This document shows positions 30,770 through 59,440 of a stretch of 59,440 nucleotides of DNA, piece by piece (the first letter of the stretch is position 1; every line of letters begins with the position of its first letter). The stretch is from an uncultured Candidatus Saccharibacteria bacterium (lineage in GTDB: Bacteria > Patescibacteriota > Minisyncoccia > Phycocordibacterales > Phycocordibacteraceae), in assembly GCA_964499455.1 (NCBI GenBank), contig CAZCLC010000001.1, forward strand, positions 1 through 59,440, written 5' to 3'. The notes beneath the pieces were generated by a model. The model had not been told where the DNA came from. It searched no databases and saw only the letters and a list, made by a program, of their open reading frames with translations. The translations under genes and the position numbers were made by a program.

Positions 30770-30841
30770 GGCCCTATCGTCTAATGGCTAGGACATCACC
30801 CTCTCACGGTGGTAATCGGGGTTCGACTCCCCGTAGGGTCA
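30770..30841 (+). tRNA. tRNA-Glu (anticodon CTC)
   Basis: Full cloverleaf by hand: acceptor GGCCCTA/TAGGGTC, D-stem GTCT/GGAC, anticodon stem TCACC/GGTGG with loop CTCTCAC, 4-nt variable loop, T-arm CGGGG-TTCGACT-CCCCG, discriminator A. Confidence 0.92.
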
Positions 30842-31020
30842 CAAATTGAAACTTCTTGCGAAGTTAGCACAAAAGAGTGGCGCGCCGCAGGCGCGCCACA
30901 TCGCACTCGCTCCACTCGTGCGACCGACCGACAAAATAATTTCCTCTCAATTTTTGTCCGGCTCCTCCCCAAACCTCTCCGCCGAAAGGCGAAAAGAAGA
31001 AAGGAAGTTTTTTGTTTGCT
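30842..31020. repeat. GC-rich hairpin-dense repeat, copy A (inverted relative to copies C and B)
   Basis: Starts immediately after tRNA-Glu. Has a 10-bp perfect GC hairpin GTGGCGCGCC-GCA-GGCGCGCCAC at 30877-30899. The reverse complement of 30939-30986 matches 59094-59142 (TTCGG.GGAG.GGT.TGGGGAGGAGCCG.ACAAAAA.TTGA.AGGAAAT). Confidence 0.75.
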
Positions 31021-54757: not shown

Positions 54758-55720
54758 TTATGAATACATACCAATTGTACGTTTGACATATTCCATTTTT
54801 TTATCAGTTATAGCAATTGCCTCTCGCTTCCCTTTTGCAAGCACATCATCAACAATATCAGTATCTTTTTTTAAAGTTTCATATCGTGTACGAATGGTGG
54901 CAAAATATGTATTAAGGTCTTCTAAAAGTATTTCTTTGAGTATCTTATATTTTCCTTTATTTTTTTCATAAATTAGAGAAAGTTCGTTCTCATTTCGCAC
55001 TAATTTATGAATCGCATAAACATTTTCTGGCCTATCACCAGCTGAATCTGTAACAATGCTCATAACACGTTTGGTAAGCTCGTTTTGAGAAGCAAACAGA
55101 GGAATTACATTATCATAACTTTTACTCATTTTTTTACCGTCTGTACCTGAGACCACTGCAACGTCTGGAGTAATATATGCTTCAGGTAATACAAATATAT
55201 CATCTTGAAAAATATGATTAAATTTTCGTGCTGTATCACGAGCAATTTCAATATGCTGTTTCTGGTCTTGTCCAACTGGCACGATAGTCGTATCGTAAAG
55301 TAAAATATCTGCTGCCATTAACATCGGATAGTTAAAGACACCAACAGAGATTTCTTTGTTTTTTTCTTGTGCATCTTTAAATGCGTGCGCACGCATTAGG
55401 TACGGTATAGTTGTAATAGTATCGAAAATCCATGCAAGTTCAGTATGTGCTGGTACATCTGATTGTTTAAAAATAACTACTTCTTCTGGATCAAGTCCGA
55501 TTGCAAGATAGCTTATAACAAGTTCACGTGTACGTACACGCATTTCTTCAGCGTCTTGTACAGTATTAAGTGCGTGATAATCTGCAACCATAATAAAGCA
55601 ACGATACTTTCCACTTTTAAAAAGTTCCATTTGTTGACGCATTGCACCAAAATAATTTCCAATGTGTAACTCACCGGTCGGTTTTATACCGGAAAAGAGT
55701 ATTGATTTTGAATCAGTCAT
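54758..55720 (-). CDS. trpS: Tryptophanyl-tRNA synthetase
   Basis: SGIKPTGELHIGNYFGA (HIGH), VPVGQDQKQH and KMSKS. Confidence 0.95.
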   Translation of the reverse strand: MTDSKSILFSGIKPTGELHIGNYFGAMRQQMELFKSGKYRCFIMVADYHALNTVQDAEEMRVRTRELVISYLAIGLDPEEVVIFKQSDVPAHTELAWIFDTITTIPYLMRAHAFKDAQEKNKEISVGVFNYPMLMAADILLYDTTIVPVGQDQKQHIEIARDTARKFNHIFQDDIFVLPEAYITPDVAVVSGTDGKKMSKSYDNVIPLFASQNELTKRVMSIVTDSAGDRPENVYAIHKLVRNENELSLIYEKNKGKYKILKEILLEDLNTYFATIRTRYETLKKDTDIVDDVLAKGKREAIAITDKKMEYVKRTIGMYS

Positions 55721-55859
55721 AAATATTACAATACCATATTATTATGTACTACTCATCAATATAATTCAAAACTTAATATGCACGCATTTAAATAATTTAC
55801 TGTTGATGCCTATATCATATATTATGTTTATTACATGTGTGCGCAAGCGTTGCTTCATA

Positions 55860-56125
55860 ATGTTTAGTATATGCGATGTTTTGCGGAACGGAGTGGAGCA
55901 AAATATGGGAGAGCGAAGTGCAACGAGTGAACCGCATATACTGTGTTAGGCGAGCCGAACGGAGCGATAGCGGAGTGAGAGTGCAACGTGCCTTTAGTGT
56001 ACATTTTTTTATCTTTTTCTTCCATAATTGTTTCCCGCGTAGCTTTTATATTAAATGCAAAACAAAATTTTTCTGTTTTGGGCGAAGGGCAGAGGGGATT
56101 AAGGGGTGAATGCCCGTAGCCCAAA
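55860..56125. repeat. GC-rich repeat, copy D: decayed CTAAA/TTTAG hairpin unit plus the left arm of the cassette-bracketing inverted repeat (56001-56104)
   Basis: GGAGCGATAGCGGAGTGAG at 55961-55979 recurs at 57770-57784 and 58085-58103. 56001-56104 aligns by eye to the reverse complement of 57792-57888. Confidence 0.7.
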
Positions 56126-56130
56126 ACTCA

Positions 56131-56805
56131 TTATTCTTCCCAGTCTCTTTTTGTTATTTGATCTTTTGCGCCGTCAGGCAACTCCTCATAAAATCCTTCA
56201 ATTTCTTTTGGCTCCGAAATCATTTTTTCTGCAATAAAGTTTATTAATTCGAAAAGTTTCAAAACTAATTCCGGTTTTTCCTCAATATTAATTTCACCCG
56301 GATGTACAGCATTATTTCCAGTGATGCGTAGAATATCTAAAGATTTTTGAATTTGAGAATTTAATCCTTGTTTAACAAGGTTTCCAATATCCATATTTAT
56401 ATTTTCTCCTTTTTCTCCGAGCTGCTTACAAAGTTTTTGTAATGCAAGTCTTAGTAGGGCTGCTGATGATCTTACGGAATCGTTAAAAATAATTGCGGCT
56501 TCCAAATAATCTTTTTTAATATCTTCAGATAAATCATCATTTGGCAAATCAACAATCATTTTCTTTGGATAAACAATTTCACCATTTAACCAAATTATTT
56601 TCTGACCACAATGTTCGCACTTAGAAATAGTCCAATCTTTACTTAGTGTTTCGTTGAAATCAGATGTTCCTGTTATTGAATTAGATCCACTCCAGGCATG
56701 TTGCGCAATAATATGTGCCCAAAATTGTTTTGCATAAACGCCACAATGCGGACAATGAAATTGTCCTGTTGCATGTTCTGGTGGATAGTACTTTTCTTTT
56801 TTCAT
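56131..56805 (-). CDS. Zn-ribbon + DUF4145 protein (second gene of the Mrr cassette)
   Basis: The N-terminus has four Cys (CPHC ... CEHC). The C-terminal helical domain carries the DUF4145 pattern (SSAALLRLALQKLCKQLG...LDILRITGNNAVHPG). Confidence 0.8.
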   Translation of the reverse strand: MKKEKYYPPEHATGQFHCPHCGVYAKQFWAHIIAQHAWSGSNSITGTSDFNETLSKDWTISKCEHCGQKIIWLNGEIVYPKKMIVDLPNDDLSEDIKKDYLEAAIIFNDSVRSSAALLRLALQKLCKQLGEKGENINMDIGNLVKQGLNSQIQKSLDILRITGNNAVHPGEINIEEKPELVLKLFELINFIAEKMISEPKEIEGFYEELPDGAKDQITKRDWEE

Positions 56806-56817
56806 AATTGTAATAAA

Positions 56818-57708
56818 TTAGTTTTCTTCAAAAAAATCTTCATCAACTTCTTTTACTTCATATATATTGCGGACTTGCACACCAACACCATATTGATACA
56901 TTAAATCTACAAGTTTGTTACCATCAATAAGAATTATCGTATGATGTGCTTCATATGCCTTTTTAATAGCTGAATCATCAAAGTTTGAAGTAGTAACAAA
57001 AACTCCTTTGTTTGTATCTCCACTCATTGCCCCAATAAAATTACGAATTTCTTTTTCGCGAACTTTATTTTCGTTATAACGTTTTGCTTGAATATAAATT
57101 TTTTCAAGTCCAAGCTGATCTTCATTTATAACTCCATCAATACCACCATCACCTGATTTTGAAGTTTCAATAAAATCACCATATCCCATTTTTTTGAGTA
57201 AGATTAAAATGACTTTTTCAAAATAGTACGGATCAATATTTCTCAATTTTTCTAAAAGGTCACTTTTAACTTGAGAATCAATCGCTGAAAAACCAGAATC
57301 AATCAAATCTTGTGGAGATGCATTTTCAACATTAATTTCATCATTTTTAGATTCCTTTTCTGCCTTTTTAGCTTCACGATGAGCCAAAAAAACAGAATCA
57401 TTCTTTAACTCTTGTAATGTCAATGTTCCTTTTTGCAAAGCAGTCTTGCCTTTTTCTGTAATTTGTACCATTCCTCTTTCTGGGTAATCTAAAAATTTTC
57501 CTTGCTTCAAATAAGATTTACCCCACCCTATACGATCAAGTAATACATTGGCACCGGTGGTTGTTTTTTTATTTAATAGTTCTTCAGGTAAATCTGAATA
57601 GTATTTATTACGTACGCGCTTACGTAATTCATTGTAATGTAGTATTTCTCCATTACTTAATACTTCTAGAATTGGTATAAATGTTTCGTGATATTTAGGT
57701 AATTCCAT
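56818..57708 (-). CDS. mrr: Mrr-type restriction endonuclease (Mrr_N winged helix + Mrr_cat PD-(D/E)xK)
   Basis: N-terminus MELPKYHETFIPILEVLSNGE..HYNELRKRV (Mrr_N). C-terminus FEKVILILLKKMGYG...SGDGGIDGVI...IYIQAKRY...I.NF.GAM......GVFVTTS.F (Mrr catalytic core). Confidence 0.88.
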   Translation of the reverse strand: MELPKYHETFIPILEVLSNGEILHYNELRKRVRNKYYSDLPEELLNKKTTTGANVLLDRIGWGKSYLKQGKFLDYPERGMVQITEKGKTALQKGTLTLQELKNDSVFLAHREAKKAEKESKNDEINVENASPQDLIDSGFSAIDSQVKSDLLEKLRNIDPYYFEKVILILLKKMGYGDFIETSKSGDGGIDGVINEDQLGLEKIYIQAKRYNENKVREKEIRNFIGAMSGDTNKGVFVTTSNFDDSAIKKAYEAHHTIILIDGNKLVDLMYQYGVGVQVRNIYEVKEVDEDFFEEN

Positions 57709-57724
57709 AGTTGTATTAATTATT

Positions 57725-58135
57725 TTGTGAAAATTATATTCCTTTCTCCCTTATAAATAAATCGTTTTCGGAGCGATAGCGGAGAAAACAACCTTATATC
57801 CCCTCTAAAAAGAAAAAAATTGTTTTGCTTCCTTATTCTTAAAAGCGAAGCGGGAAACCTCCTTATTATCAAAAAAGATAAAAAATGTATGCCGCCTAAT
57901 GCGCCGCGGATGATGCGACCGTTTGCGAGTATAATTATTGTAGCATAGCTACAATAATTTATGAGCAAATGTCGCATATCCCGCTGTTGTCCGAAGTCCG
58001 CGAAGCGAAGCGAAGCGAGCGGGATGAGGACGGCAGAGGGATTCATCCGCGGCGCATTGTCCTAAATCCGAGAGTGAGACGAATGGAGCGACAGCGGAGT
58101 GAGCTGAGCGAGCGGATTTAGGACAACTGGTTTTT
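57725..58135. repeat. GC-rich repeat, copy E: right arm of the inverted repeat (57792-57888) plus a multi-stem element (57898-58135)
   Basis: A 16-bp perfect closing stem AATGCGCCGCGGATGA (57898-57913) / TCATCCGCGGCGCATT (58043-58058) encloses a 12-bp hairpin (57933-57959) and an ATCCCGC/GCGGGAT hairpin carrying (CGAAG)x3. Then comes a 14-bp hairpin 58057-58070/58113-58126 and T5 (58131-58135). Confidence 0.75.
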
Positions 58136-58203
58136 ATCCATACTTTGTGATTGAATTATAGCAAGAAGTTTTATGTTATACAAACTTTTATTATTCTTGA
58201 ACT

Positions 58204-59016
58204 ATGGGCAATATTTTAGACAAAACCGAACGAGTATTACGATTACGCAACTACTCTCCCAAAACTCGTAAAGCATACTTGTTCTATATAAGACAGTATA
58301 TCAGTTTTTCTAAAAAAGCTGGAATCAAAAATAAACAAAAAGTAGTTGAGGATTTTTTACTTGATAAACATAACCGCAAACAATCTCCGCAAACAATCAA
58401 TCTTGCACTTAATGCTGTAAAGTTTTTGTATAGAGAAGTTTTGAAAAATTCGCAAAAAATTGATTTAAAATTTGCAAAAAGAAGTAAGAAGTTGCCAGTT
58501 GTACTTTCACATCGTGAGATTGAGAAAATTATCCATGCAACTGATAATGCAAAATATAAACTTATGATTTCACTTGGTTATGCTTGTGGTCTTAGAGTTA
58601 GCGAGGTTATTAGTCTGCATGTAGCTGATTTGGATATTGATGAGCTTGTTGTTCATATCAAAAGAGCAAAAGGTAAGAAAGACAGAATCAGTGTTCTACC
58701 TGGAAAGCTGCAGGATGATTTACGGAATATAATTGCTGATAGAAATGCGAAAGATTATATTTTTGATTCTAATCGTGGCGGAAAACTTACAACAACATCT
58801 TTGCAAAAAATGTTTCGCAAGAGTTTAGCAAAAACAACAATCAAAAAGCCAGTAACTTTCCACTCCCTGCGACATTCTTTTGCAACACACTTGTTAGAAA
58901 ACGGAACGGATGTGCGTTATGTACAGGAATTGCTTGGACACTCTAATATTCGCACTACGCAAATCTATACACAAGTTACAAACCCGAAGTTAAAGAATAT
59001 TAAGAGTCCACTGTAA
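58204..59016 (+). CDS. Tyrosine recombinase (XerC/D-like with SAM-like N-domain; lacks the IntI-specific insertion)
   Basis: N-terminus LRNYSPKTRKAYLFYIRQYISF. Catalytic residues fit R (GLRVSE), K (KGKKDR), H-x-x-R (HSLRHSFATH), H (LLGHS) and Y (TQIYTQV). Only 270 aa. Confidence 0.9.
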   Translation: MGNILDKTERVLRLRNYSPKTRKAYLFYIRQYISFSKKAGIKNKQKVVEDFLLDKHNRKQSPQTINLALNAVKFLYREVLKNSQKIDLKFAKRSKKLPVVLSHREIEKIIHATDNAKYKLMISLGYACGLRVSEVISLHVADLDIDELVVHIKRAKGKKDRISVLPGKLQDDLRNIIADRNAKDYIFDSNRGGKLTTTSLQKMFRKSLAKTTIKKPVTFHSLRHSFATHLLENGTDVRYVQELLGHSNIRTTQIYTQVTNPKLKNIKSPL

Positions 59017-59019
59017 CTA

Positions 59020-59440
59020 TTATAGCGAACCCGACCGAGGGTCTGCCCCAACGAAGTGAGGGTGCAAAATCATTTCCTTACCTCTCTTTCTTTTTCGGTG
59101 GAGGGGTCTGGGGAGGAGCCGAACAAAAAATTGAAAGGAAATGGTTTTGGTCGGGTGGCTCGCCGAGTGAAGCGGGGCGAGAGTGACGCGGTTGTATTGC
59201 GAGAGTTACCACTAAACTCTCCTATCGGAGAGTTTAGTGTAGAATTACCACACAGGATCTCGCCGTGGAGCGTGCGCCCGCAGGCGCACGCATTTAGACA
59301 GCACGCACTCCGTGCGTTCCTATTTGTTTAATGTAGTTGATTTTGAAAATAGGTTCTATTCTGGTGCCTTTATTTTACCAAATCCGAACCTATTTTCAAA
59401 ATAAATACTAACTCACGCGCGGAGCGCGTGGAAACTCCAA
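59020..59440. repeat. GC-rich hairpin-dense repeat, copy B (collinear with copy C); runs to the window edge
   Basis: Stems: CTCGCC/GGCGAG 59159-59181, 13-bp perfect 59210-59222/59227-59239, 9-bp GC 59270-59291, 59303-59317, 17-bp perfect 59340-59356/59386-59402, 59414-59430. Block 59094-59142 is shared with copies A and C. Confidence 0.75.

Follow-up and report, generated by a model that had tools for sequence, protein, structure and literature searches.

The main example of dedicated gene-capture machinery is the integron, which is defined by an integrase with the IntI-specific domain and by attC sites. The core consensus of these sites is GTTRRRY / RYYYAAC, with GTTAGGC and GCCTAAC being canonical core and inverse-core sequences. 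Single-recombinase Xer systems with a dif site beside the gene, namely, XerS/difSL and XerH/difH, are also known, as are integrative mobile elements exploiting Xer (IMEX) and the pdif modules of Acinetobacter, which are flanked by inverted Xer sites. Moreover, inverted repeats beside a tyrosine recombinase are found in invertons, such as fimS-type switches, the invertible promoters of Bacteroides, and hsdS shufflons. For archaeal integrons, both the IntI domain and attC sites of the ordinary kind have been described (Ghaly et al. 2022, PMC9668308). In the case of the candidate phyla radiation (CPR, Patescibacteria), nothing relevant was found in the searchable literature on integrons, attC, or integron-like elements. 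Here, a 59,440-nt stretch of DNA from an uncultured Candidatus Saccharibacteria bacterium (contig CAZCLC010000001.1, the entire NCBI record; hereafter, the window) was analyzed. Near its right end, two defense genes, encoding an Mrr-type nuclease and RAZR, are enclosed by long inverted repeats next to a tyrosine recombinase gene. Positions 55862–58203 probably constitute a short integron-like array beside, and divergent from, this CPR recombinase. On our best reading, the novelty lies in the packaging, which is integron-like, and not in the genes, and the locus belongs to a widespread and apparently undescribed form of gene capture run by a Xer-like recombinase.

Architecture of the array and its recurrence

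The gene order at the right end is trpS (54758–55720, minus strand), a 410-nt spacer, the RAZR gene (56805→56131), 12 nt, the mrr gene (57708→56818), a 495-nt spacer, and the recombinase gene (58204–59016, plus strand). The positions of the two defense genes and of the recombinase gene, as well as the 12-nt gap, were the same as in the initial annotation, which had been made from the sequence alone. The window has a GC content of approximately 35% and is bacterial, low-GC DNA. A second metagenome, GCA_006240935.1, contains an assembly of the Mrr–RAZR locus that is 99.9% identical and divided over two short contigs, with breaks at window positions 55917 and 58044–58067. As this assembly was independent, the locus is not an assembly artefact.

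Imperfect inverted repeats around the two genes had been aligned by eye at 56001–56104 and 57792–57888. The local alignment of 55990–56125 with the reverse complement of 57760–57900 gave a score of 58, while 500 dinucleotide shuffles gave 18.9 ± 2.6 with a maximum of 32; thus, the repeat is real. Its limits had been drawn too narrowly, as the arms extend from 55945 (GTTAGGCG) to 57900 (reverse complement ATTAGGCG). In a gapped global alignment of 55945–56112 with the reverse complement of 57786–57900, 93 of the 105 aligned columns were identical, and the left arm held insertions of approximately 44 nt and 11 nt relative to the right arm. Both termini resemble integron cores, with GTTAGGC at 55945 and GCCTAAT at 57900. 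Within the 59-kb window, no further copies of the arms were found.

The left arm, which is the distal or trailer arm (55945–56110, plus strand), starts with the core-like GTTAGGC, carries the ~44-nt insertion at 55953–55998, and overlaps a hairpin (56076–56126) situated after the RAZR stop codon. Its inner part was 86–94% identical to the trailers of two other loci (L061 and L032). The right arm, which is the proximal or leader arm (57788–57900, plus strand), ends with GCCGCCTAAT (reverse complement ATTAGGCGGC) and is followed inward by an inner leader (57709–57787, minus strand). Together, the right arm and the inner leader form a conserved element, and at least 14 other loci carry it upstream of the recombinase in an identical orientation. 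The inner leader includes a hairpin at 57763–57790 (CGTTTTC GGAGCGATAGCGGA GAAAAC), conserved in seven other leaders, and a −10-like TATAAT (reverse complement of 57733–57738). From this TATAAT, a promoter belonging to the cassette, as initially proposed, is plausible; the promoter consensus scan gave no site above the threshold in the inner leader, and the scans were not enriched over shuffles.

The ~44-nt type of insertion was also present in L052, L077, and L103, and its conserved piece, CCGAACGGAGCGATAGCGGAGTGAGAGTGCAACGTG, occupies the same site in the distal arm of several otherwise different cassettes. It includes a 15-mer, GGAGCGATAGCGGAG, which recurs as the loop sequence of two hairpins, namely, the leader hairpin and, with a single mismatch (GGAGCGACAGCGGAG), the hairpin beside the attI-like site described below.

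To place the locus among its relatives, 80 loci from GTDB genomes carrying homologues of the recombinase were compared. In many of these genomes, matched arms flank unrelated cargo beside the same recombinase family. The view that the segment is a discrete and probably mobile unit, functionally linked to its neighboring recombinase, was supported. In almost every case, the cassettes begin distally with GTTAnnnG.TGTA and end proximally with ...TAYTTCnnnTAAC (reverse complement of GTTAnnnGAAATA). The left-end motif occurred 23 times on the plus strand and never on the minus strand in 255 kb upstream of the recombinase genes, compared with 1 and 0 times in 410 kb downstream (binomial p = 4e-9). 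The right-end motif showed 56 plus and 3 minus occurrences upstream and 4 of each downstream (binomial p = 3e-19). These strict patterns miss the termini of the window cassette owing to the left-arm insertion and to an A in place of G at the right end. A total of 19 cassettes were delimited by the motifs, with lengths of 330–3668 nt and mostly with a single open reading frame (ORF), and 26 of 27 cassette ORFs were divergent from the recombinase (p = 2e-7). Their cargo comprised an SDH-type protease, DUF218, SfsA, a Bro-N protein (PADLOC PDC-S13), a P-loop kinase, a membrane spermidine-synthase-like protein, Ham1, an ADP-ribosyltransferase toxin, DUF134, and several proteins without a Pfam match.

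The two ends of a cassette covary. In the variable triplet, 2.58 of 3 positions matched within a cassette compared with 1.26 in permutations, and at positions 14–40, 15.2 of 27 matched compared with 10.05; in both cases, none of 2000 permutations reached the observed value. Long-range inverted-repeat pairs were also concentrated on the array side, with 20 in 242 kb upstream and 6 in 408 kb downstream (p = 4e-5).

Cassette presence differs between strains. In two metagenome-assembled genomes, L013 and L014, the flanks are 99.7–99.9% identical, and L014 has two extra blocks of 2.6 kb and 521 nt. The larger block consists of two cassettes with their units, one carrying an SDH-protease-like gene with a 60-aa ORF and the other DUF218. 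The 521-nt cassette, including its arms, was 78% identical to a cassette in the unrelated array L066; the recombinases of L066 and L014 are 62% and 82% identical to that of the window, respectively. Homologous cassettes thus recur across genomes, which supports the movement of whole cassettes between arrays, and the cargo seems, from such comparisons, to be exchangeable inside a constant cassette frame. Cassette 1 of L061 (4143–5784) and the L068 cassette (229–1307) share identical arms over ~62 nt on each side and encode unrelated proteins, which bears on the question of how cassettes originate. In L103, a homologous Mrr cassette stands in an array, and its leader and Mrr gene are 79% identical to those of the window. 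The homology breaks off where the second gene starts and is regained from its stop codon onward; therefore, the frame was conserved and the second gene was swapped. The second gene of L103 (5914–6612) encodes an unrelated 232-aa protein with an RNKNIH motif (Rx4H, HEPN-like) and no Pfam or PADLOC match, and this protein may be an undescribed HEPN-type partner of Mrr.

The recombinase and its candidate sites

The recombinase is a 270-aa protein (58204–59016, plus strand) with matches to PF00589 and PF13495, related to IntI and Xer. Its catalytic domain is present with the R..K..HxxR..H..Y signature (PF00589, 1.5e-43) and the motifs GLRVSE, KGKKDR, HSLRH, LLGH, and IYTQV. The top NCBIfam model was that of the integron integrase, TIGR02249, at 226.7 bits, under the cut-off of 265. 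The closest solved structure was likewise an integron integrase, IntI4 of Vibrio cholerae (PDB 2A3V), at 162 bits compared with 135 bits for XerA. In many CPR lineages, the recombinase is 80–87% identical, mostly on short contigs, and such identity across CPR classes may point to horizontal mobility of the platform itself. Recombinases of 59–85% identity were also seen on five contigs labelled Altiarchaeales, Actinomycetota, Nitrospirae, Deltaproteobacteria, and Gammaproteobacteria; either these are mis-binned CPR contigs or the platform has spread beyond the CPR. No relatives of the recombinase were found among the IMG/VR viral contigs.

On the distal side of the cassette lies an attC-like three-way-junction unit (55862–55944, plus strand), consisting of GTTT, the 5′ half of a stem P1 (55865–55875), ATGTT, a hairpin P2, ATATGGGAGAG, a P3 region, GAAC, the 3′ half of P1 (55933–55943), and T. 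The consensus of such units, YAAC | GTTT - P1 (11 nt) - AAGTT - hairpin P2 - AATTTGGGTGAAAG - hairpin P3 - GAACC - P1′ - T | GTTA, was found in 23 units from 17 sources (16 loci and the window), and P2 is frequently just GCGAAGC or GCGTAGC. These inter-cassette sites are 70–185 nt long and are covarying three-way junctions. Stem P1 was paired at 92.1% of positions compared with 72.1 ± 1.9% in shuffles, a level that none of 500 shuffles reached, while slid controls gave 20–56%. Compensatory changes on both sides were present in 7 of the 11 pairs; because complementarity of the inner 7 pairs had served to pick the partners, an unbiased test is given by just the outer 4, three of which show 9–10 double changes each. 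The window unit is 82% identical to a unit in L103, after which AAAC|GTTAGAC opens another cassette. At the distal end of the window array, CATAAT (55856–55861) forms a degenerate junction of the ...YAAC type, beyond which lies chromosomal sequence upstream of trpS; the equivalent position in other loci reads ...ATAAC|GTTT.

The sequence d(GCGAAGC) is an exceptionally stable DNA mini-hairpin. Upstream of the recombinase genes, the strand antisense to the cassette genes carried 128 copies of the motif GCG[AT]{1,2}AGC and the sense strand carried 26 (p = 1e-17), compared with 51 and 35 copies downstream. In the window, the array had 7 and 0 copies, and the remaining 55.7 kb had 4 and 5. Each arm of the window cassette holds a mini-hairpin on the same strand (GCGTAGC at 56037–56043 and GCGAAGC at 57845–57851), and the inverted repeat is interrupted precisely so that the motif stays on that strand. 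This argues for a function in single-stranded DNA, on the counterpart of the integron bottom strand.

An attI-like site, AAC|TGGTTTTTATCC (58125–58139), lies 80 nt before the recombinase gene, within a conserved upstream region (58125–58203, plus strand). Of 68 loci, 52 had the pattern AACnnnT[TAG][TA]TTAT at most 200 nt upstream of the recombinase, and in 22 its distance from the start codon was exactly 80 nt; elsewhere, it had 36 matches in 1.43 Mb. Several contigs start exactly at the attI-like motif. Among 78 loci, the contig begins less than 450 nt before the recombinase gene in 24 and ends less than 450 nt after it in only 3 (p = 2.5e-5). The sequence to the left of AAC is therefore hypervariable within populations.

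Between the cassette and the attI-like site are two gene-less structures. A GC-rich element (57898–58058, plus strand) has a 16-bp perfect outer stem, AATGCGCCGCGGATGA / TCATCCGCGGCGCATT, two inner hairpins, and three GCGAAGC repeats. The DNA fold of 57709–58203 had z = −8.5. GC-rich elements of matching layout and position were present in L013/L014 and three further loci, and the contig break of the second metagenome at 58044–58067 falls within or next to the end of this element. It is followed by a short hairpin, TTGTCCTAAATCCG...CGGATTTAGGACAA (58057–58127, plus strand), with the loop GGAGCGACAGCGGAG already mentioned and the end ...GGACAAC. At this position, variable-stem hairpins with a conserved GGAGCGAAGCGGA-type loop were present in five other loci.

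Integron-like model and competing explanations

In the integron-like model, 55945–57900 would be one two-gene cassette, the ends of which, 5′-GTTAGGC...GCCTAAT-3′, would match the R″ and R′ core boxes of integrons. The inverted arms of ~110–160 nt would be the outer stem of a very long attC-like palindrome. In integron orientation, the order would be GTTAGnnGAAATA, leader, ORF(s), trailer, and TACATCnnCTAAC, followed by the three-way unit and, after it, the GTT with which the next cassette starts, a layout that would map one-to-one onto R′ ... ORF ... R″ - (L″...L′) - R′. In an excised circle, the trailer, R″, the unit, R′, and the leader would become contiguous and could form one giant hairpin. 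For the window, the circle junction would be 57900|55862, ...GCCGCCTAAT|GTTTAGTATATGCG..., and this hypothetical junction had a predicted fold of −69 kcal/mol (z = −8.1), which is largely a consequence of the inverted repeat itself. The recombinase would exchange strands between the folded site and the attI-like AAC|TGGTTTTTATCC, resulting in cassette insertion or excision. The substrate would be single-stranded, the folded strand being probably the one antisense to the cassette genes, and integration would part the two outer half-stems to opposite ends of the cassette, where they would appear as the observed inverted repeats. The candidate crossover positions are AAC|G, the TGATGT box, and the TATCCGAAG box.

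The likeness to classical and archaeal integrons includes a recombinase gene divergent from small, co-oriented, and varied cassettes with mostly one ORF each, GTTRRRY / RYYYAAC-type boundary boxes with variable bases matching within a cassette, imperfect palindromic sites between cassettes, and a conserved insertion site beside the integrase gene. A single functional strand antisense to the ORFs, as in the attC bottom strand, is indicated indirectly by the GCGWAGC counts, and the best solved-structure match, IntI4 (VchIntIA), is the integrase of the V. cholerae superintegron. As a functional parallel, PD-T7-4, the former name of RAZR, is frequent cargo of Vibrio chromosomal-integron cassettes. 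However, the CPR system differs from integrons in several respects. The recombinase is without the IntI-specific domain and does not reach the TIGR02249 cut-off. While attC sites are simple bulged hairpins conserved in structure and not in sequence, the CPR sites are three-way junctions (P1, P2, P3; AAGTT / AATTTGGGTGA / GAACC) with a conserved sequence, and the palindrome runs 30–160 nt past the R boxes into cassette-specific arms, which gives terminal inverted repeats. Moreover, the cassettes seem to carry their own leaders and promoters, and extra gene-less GC-rich elements stand by the attI-like site.

Several observations weigh against this model. In addition to the sub-threshold integrase score, ~40 residues of IntI4 (~197–237), which form the IntI-specific domain, are unmatched in the recombinase, the lengths being 270 and 320 aa. 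This additional domain around patch III is thought to be necessary for attC recombination (Messier & Roy 2001, as cited in PMC9668308). The window array contains a single gene-bearing cassette, its proximal terminus is ATTAGGC instead of GTTAGGC, and no recombination product of this cassette (circle, empty site, or alternative junction) was observed. As a route to an empty site, trpS–recombinase synteny gave a trpS homologue only in L077, inside the arms. The matched arms of L077 (203–5712) enclose 5.5 kb and five genes including this trpS homologue, and the cargo of L086 is in the opposite orientation. The selection of P1 partners by inner complementarity, as described above, limits the covariation test to the outer pairs. 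In the comparison of L013 and L014, the 2.6-kb indel is flanked by an ambiguous 26-nt direct repeat, ATAACGYGCGCGGATAATCC..., which is compatible with AAC|G crossover, while the 521-nt indel is bounded by TGATGT, 7–12 nt inside the GTT box, and not by G|TT. Separately, the trpS homologue of L077 is 46% identical to the window trpS, which also abuts the window array; an old capture and an inversion are both possible.

A broader proposal is put forward tentatively, as it stands a little short of an even chance. CPR bacteria may possess a distinct class of integron-like gene-capture platform, with an IntI-related recombinase that has no IntI domain, three-way-junction attC-like units carrying the strand-specific GCG(A/T)AGC, and extended arms. 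Such a platform could be a sister or ancestral form of integrons. If true, a parallel gene-capture system would operate in CPR bacteria, which have tiny genomes and few known types of mobile elements, and it would provide a concrete mechanism for the flux of accessory and defense genes in a large uncultured radiation. It would also explain the frequent assembly breaks beside the recombinase. Furthermore, folded-site cassette recombination would not need the IntI-specific domain, and the system would be a natural test of which integrase and site features are needed for recombination of folded DNA. The compact 270-aa recombinase with its defined structured sites could then be examined as a tool.

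The main rival explanation, which we consider unlikely, is that the recombinase is a CPR dimer-resolution Xer with its dif site beside the gene, and that cassettes exploit Xer at double-stranded core sites, as do the pdif modules of Acinetobacter. The recombinase is small and Xer-like, a core-type site is located immediately upstream of its gene, and the accessory-gene modules are bounded by inverted copies resembling recombinase sites, as pdif modules are. In four distant homologues (L049, L050, L053, and L059), the attI-like site is a perfect 9-6-9 palindrome of the classic type, TTATCCGAA-GTTTAT-TTCGGATAA, and a box, TATSCGAAGTT, is found in both the attI-like site and the inter-cassette units, roughly equally far from AAC. 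All Xer equivalog models scored below their cut-offs, with XerA_Arch being just under (215.2/220) and XerD and XerC following at 182.5/329.6 and 179.3/335. A ‘Cand’ subgroup of Xer-related recombinases from candidate phyla has also been described (Smyshlyaev et al. 2021, PMC8138268). However, IntI4 is a closer match to the recombinase than XerA, XerD, or XerH, and the sites are not 28-bp duplexes but 70–185-nt folded and covarying three-way junctions with a strand-specific motif. In the window core, only the left arm, TGGTTTTTATCC, is recognizable, and the right arm is not palindromic. Arrays of many cassettes lie on one side and in one orientation, and at least one genome has two recombinase paralogues (L038 and L087). 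The L013 locus lies 4–5 kb from parAB, which is usually near the origin and not the terminus, and nothing places the CPR locus at the replication terminus.

It is improbable that the arms and units are untranslated-region structures, terminators, insulators, or regulatory RNAs of the accessory genes, without any recombination. The covarying stem with conserved single-stranded junctions (AAGTT, AATTTGGGTGA, and GAACC) does resemble a functional RNA, and a hairpin follows the RAZR stop codon. However, the GCGWAGC strand is antisense to the cassette genes. The leader arm is upstream of the −10-like element and so would be outside the cassette mRNA, which makes it unlikely that the arms act there. 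The terminator scan called none, and Rfam, at the gathering threshold and at E ≤ 1, returned only tRNAs and sub-threshold generic hairpin matches. Moreover, this explanation does not account for the strain-level differences in cassettes, the assembly breaks, or the exclusively one-sided association with the recombinase gene.

It was also suggested in the initial annotation that the neighboring recombinase might invert the segment, in which case the Mrr–RAZR segment would be flipped between its arms as a phase-variation switch. Inverted repeats beside a tyrosine recombinase are the classical layout of an inverton, the cargo of L086 is reversed, and NCBIfam models of tyrosine-type DNA invertases gave matches, albeit weak (64 bits compared with cut-offs of 221–222). 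Inversion is nevertheless very improbable, because cassette ORFs are 26:1 in one orientation. Both assemblies of the window locus also share one orientation, and orientation is essentially fixed across homologues. The −10-like element, which is conserved with L103, is inside the segment, and flipping would not switch expression. Unlike in known invertons, the arms are 110–160 nt long, hold large indels, and enclose whole genes and a leader. In addition, the strand-specific asymmetries of the arms (GATGTA compared with GAAATA; GCGWAGC on the same strand) would be randomized by flipping.

Finally, a transposon with terminal inverted repeats, or a composite derived from miniature inverted-repeat transposable elements, that captured two defense genes without any connection to the recombinase is highly doubtful; terminal inverted repeats do surround passenger genes, and the same arms occur with different cargo, but no transposase ORF lies in or near the element, no target-site duplications were present at the inspected junctions, every insertion borders the same structured unit, with a single orientation and always to one side of the same recombinase family, and the 59-kb window holds no other arm copies. 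The reading of the repeats as transposon-type ends was not upheld, nor are they specific to this cargo.

Defense cargo and other features of the window

The ORF at 56131–56805 (minus strand, 224 aa), with the Pfam match DUF4145, had been annotated as a partner of unknown role. It is instead an orthologue of RAZR, with a full-length match to PADLOC PD-T7-4 (E = 3.4e-86, 2–208 of 211) and a match to PDB 9Y9C (E = 2.6e-55) in which Arg and His are conserved. The protein has a Cys4 zinc ribbon, with both CxxC pairs retained (CPHC at 18 and CEHC at 63), and a DUF4145/HEPN domain with R160...H168. PD-T7-4 has been renamed RAZR, a single-gene RNase with a Cys4 zinc finger and a DUF4145/HEPN domain that assembles on phage ring proteins and causes abortive infection (Nature 2026, PMC13017515). 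From this resemblance in length, zinc ribbon, and catalytic residues, the window protein would be expected to act by itself as an abortive-infection RNase that becomes active on assembling on phage ring proteins. It differs from the described RAZR in being a CPR homologue and in its position in a cassette, 12 nt behind Mrr, while close homologues are found behind other restriction genes or alone.

The neighboring gene (56818–57708, minus strand) encodes a 296-aa Mrr-type type IV modification-dependent restriction endonuclease. It has Mrr_N (1.2e-18) and Mrr_cat (3.7e-35) domains with the motifs GDGGIDG and IQAKRY, and it matches PADLOC mREase_IV over its full length (1.3e-53). The Mrr_N winged helix and the PD-(D/E)xK Mrr_cat are the same as in other type IV Mrr enzymes, and the only difference noted is the packaging in a cassette.

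A defense pair formed by Mrr and DUF4145, as originally envisaged, did not hold up. Neither RAZR nor the recombinase was nearby in any of 79 loci of Mrr homologues (68–86% identity), and the L103 Mrr cassette has an unrelated second gene. The three close RAZR homologues examined (79–86% identity) had other partners or none: one is behind a type IIG restriction-modification gene, also with a 12-nt gap, one is behind two methyltransferases and an unknown gene, and one is alone among housekeeping genes. No similarity to the window arms was found in the flanks of these three homologues (L003, L005, and L009). A conserved two-gene Mrr and DUF4145 system was rejected on the neighborhoods of these Mrr and RAZR homologues. 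The cargo is two independent, known defense genes with nothing new in the genes themselves, and their adjacency is incidental or, at most, loosely modular, with a restriction gene and a swappable second gene. As early as 2013, operons combining DUF4145 genes with restriction-modification systems had been noted (PMC3710099).

Across contexts, the RAZR gene is 76–79% identical at the DNA level (L003:3955–6675, L009:1772–3671, and window 56131–56817). The similarity stops within ~25 nt of the ORF, and the gene is 12 nt behind a restriction gene in both the window and L003. RAZR thus seems to be transferred as an ORF alone, without flanking sequence, to the position behind restriction genes. In one Mrr-homologue locus (L141:5001–6360), the ORFs are broken by TGA codons, which fits an alternative genetic code of the Gracilibacteria kind, with TGA read as sense.

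Downstream of the recombinase gene, the region 59017–59440 is strongly structured (DNA fold z = −9.6), and its membership in the system is uncertain. It consists of dense nested hairpins (59017–59440; L001:974–1443), and TTATAGCRAACCC...GGCTCGCCGWAGTGAAGCGG is conserved with L013. Structured elements may therefore stand on both sides of the recombinase gene, and this gene may itself be a mobile module.

In the window, GC skew is driven mainly by gene strand. The window has a partial tRNA gene (1–54) and a tRNA-Glu gene (30770–30842), and GC-rich hairpin clusters lie downstream of both (55–300 and 30843–31010). Positions 30939–30987 are 88% identical to the reverse complement of 59093–59142. 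The GC content falls to 23–31% at 32–36 kb, where an island beside tRNA-Glu may be present. The sequence GGAATTACCACATTATCGGAGC...GGAGCGTAAGATTAAGTT is located at 205–300, where it holds an extra inserted hairpin of ~60 nt, and an inverted copy is located at L001:1400–1443, just past the window end; therefore, both contig ends lie in a multi-copy repeat.

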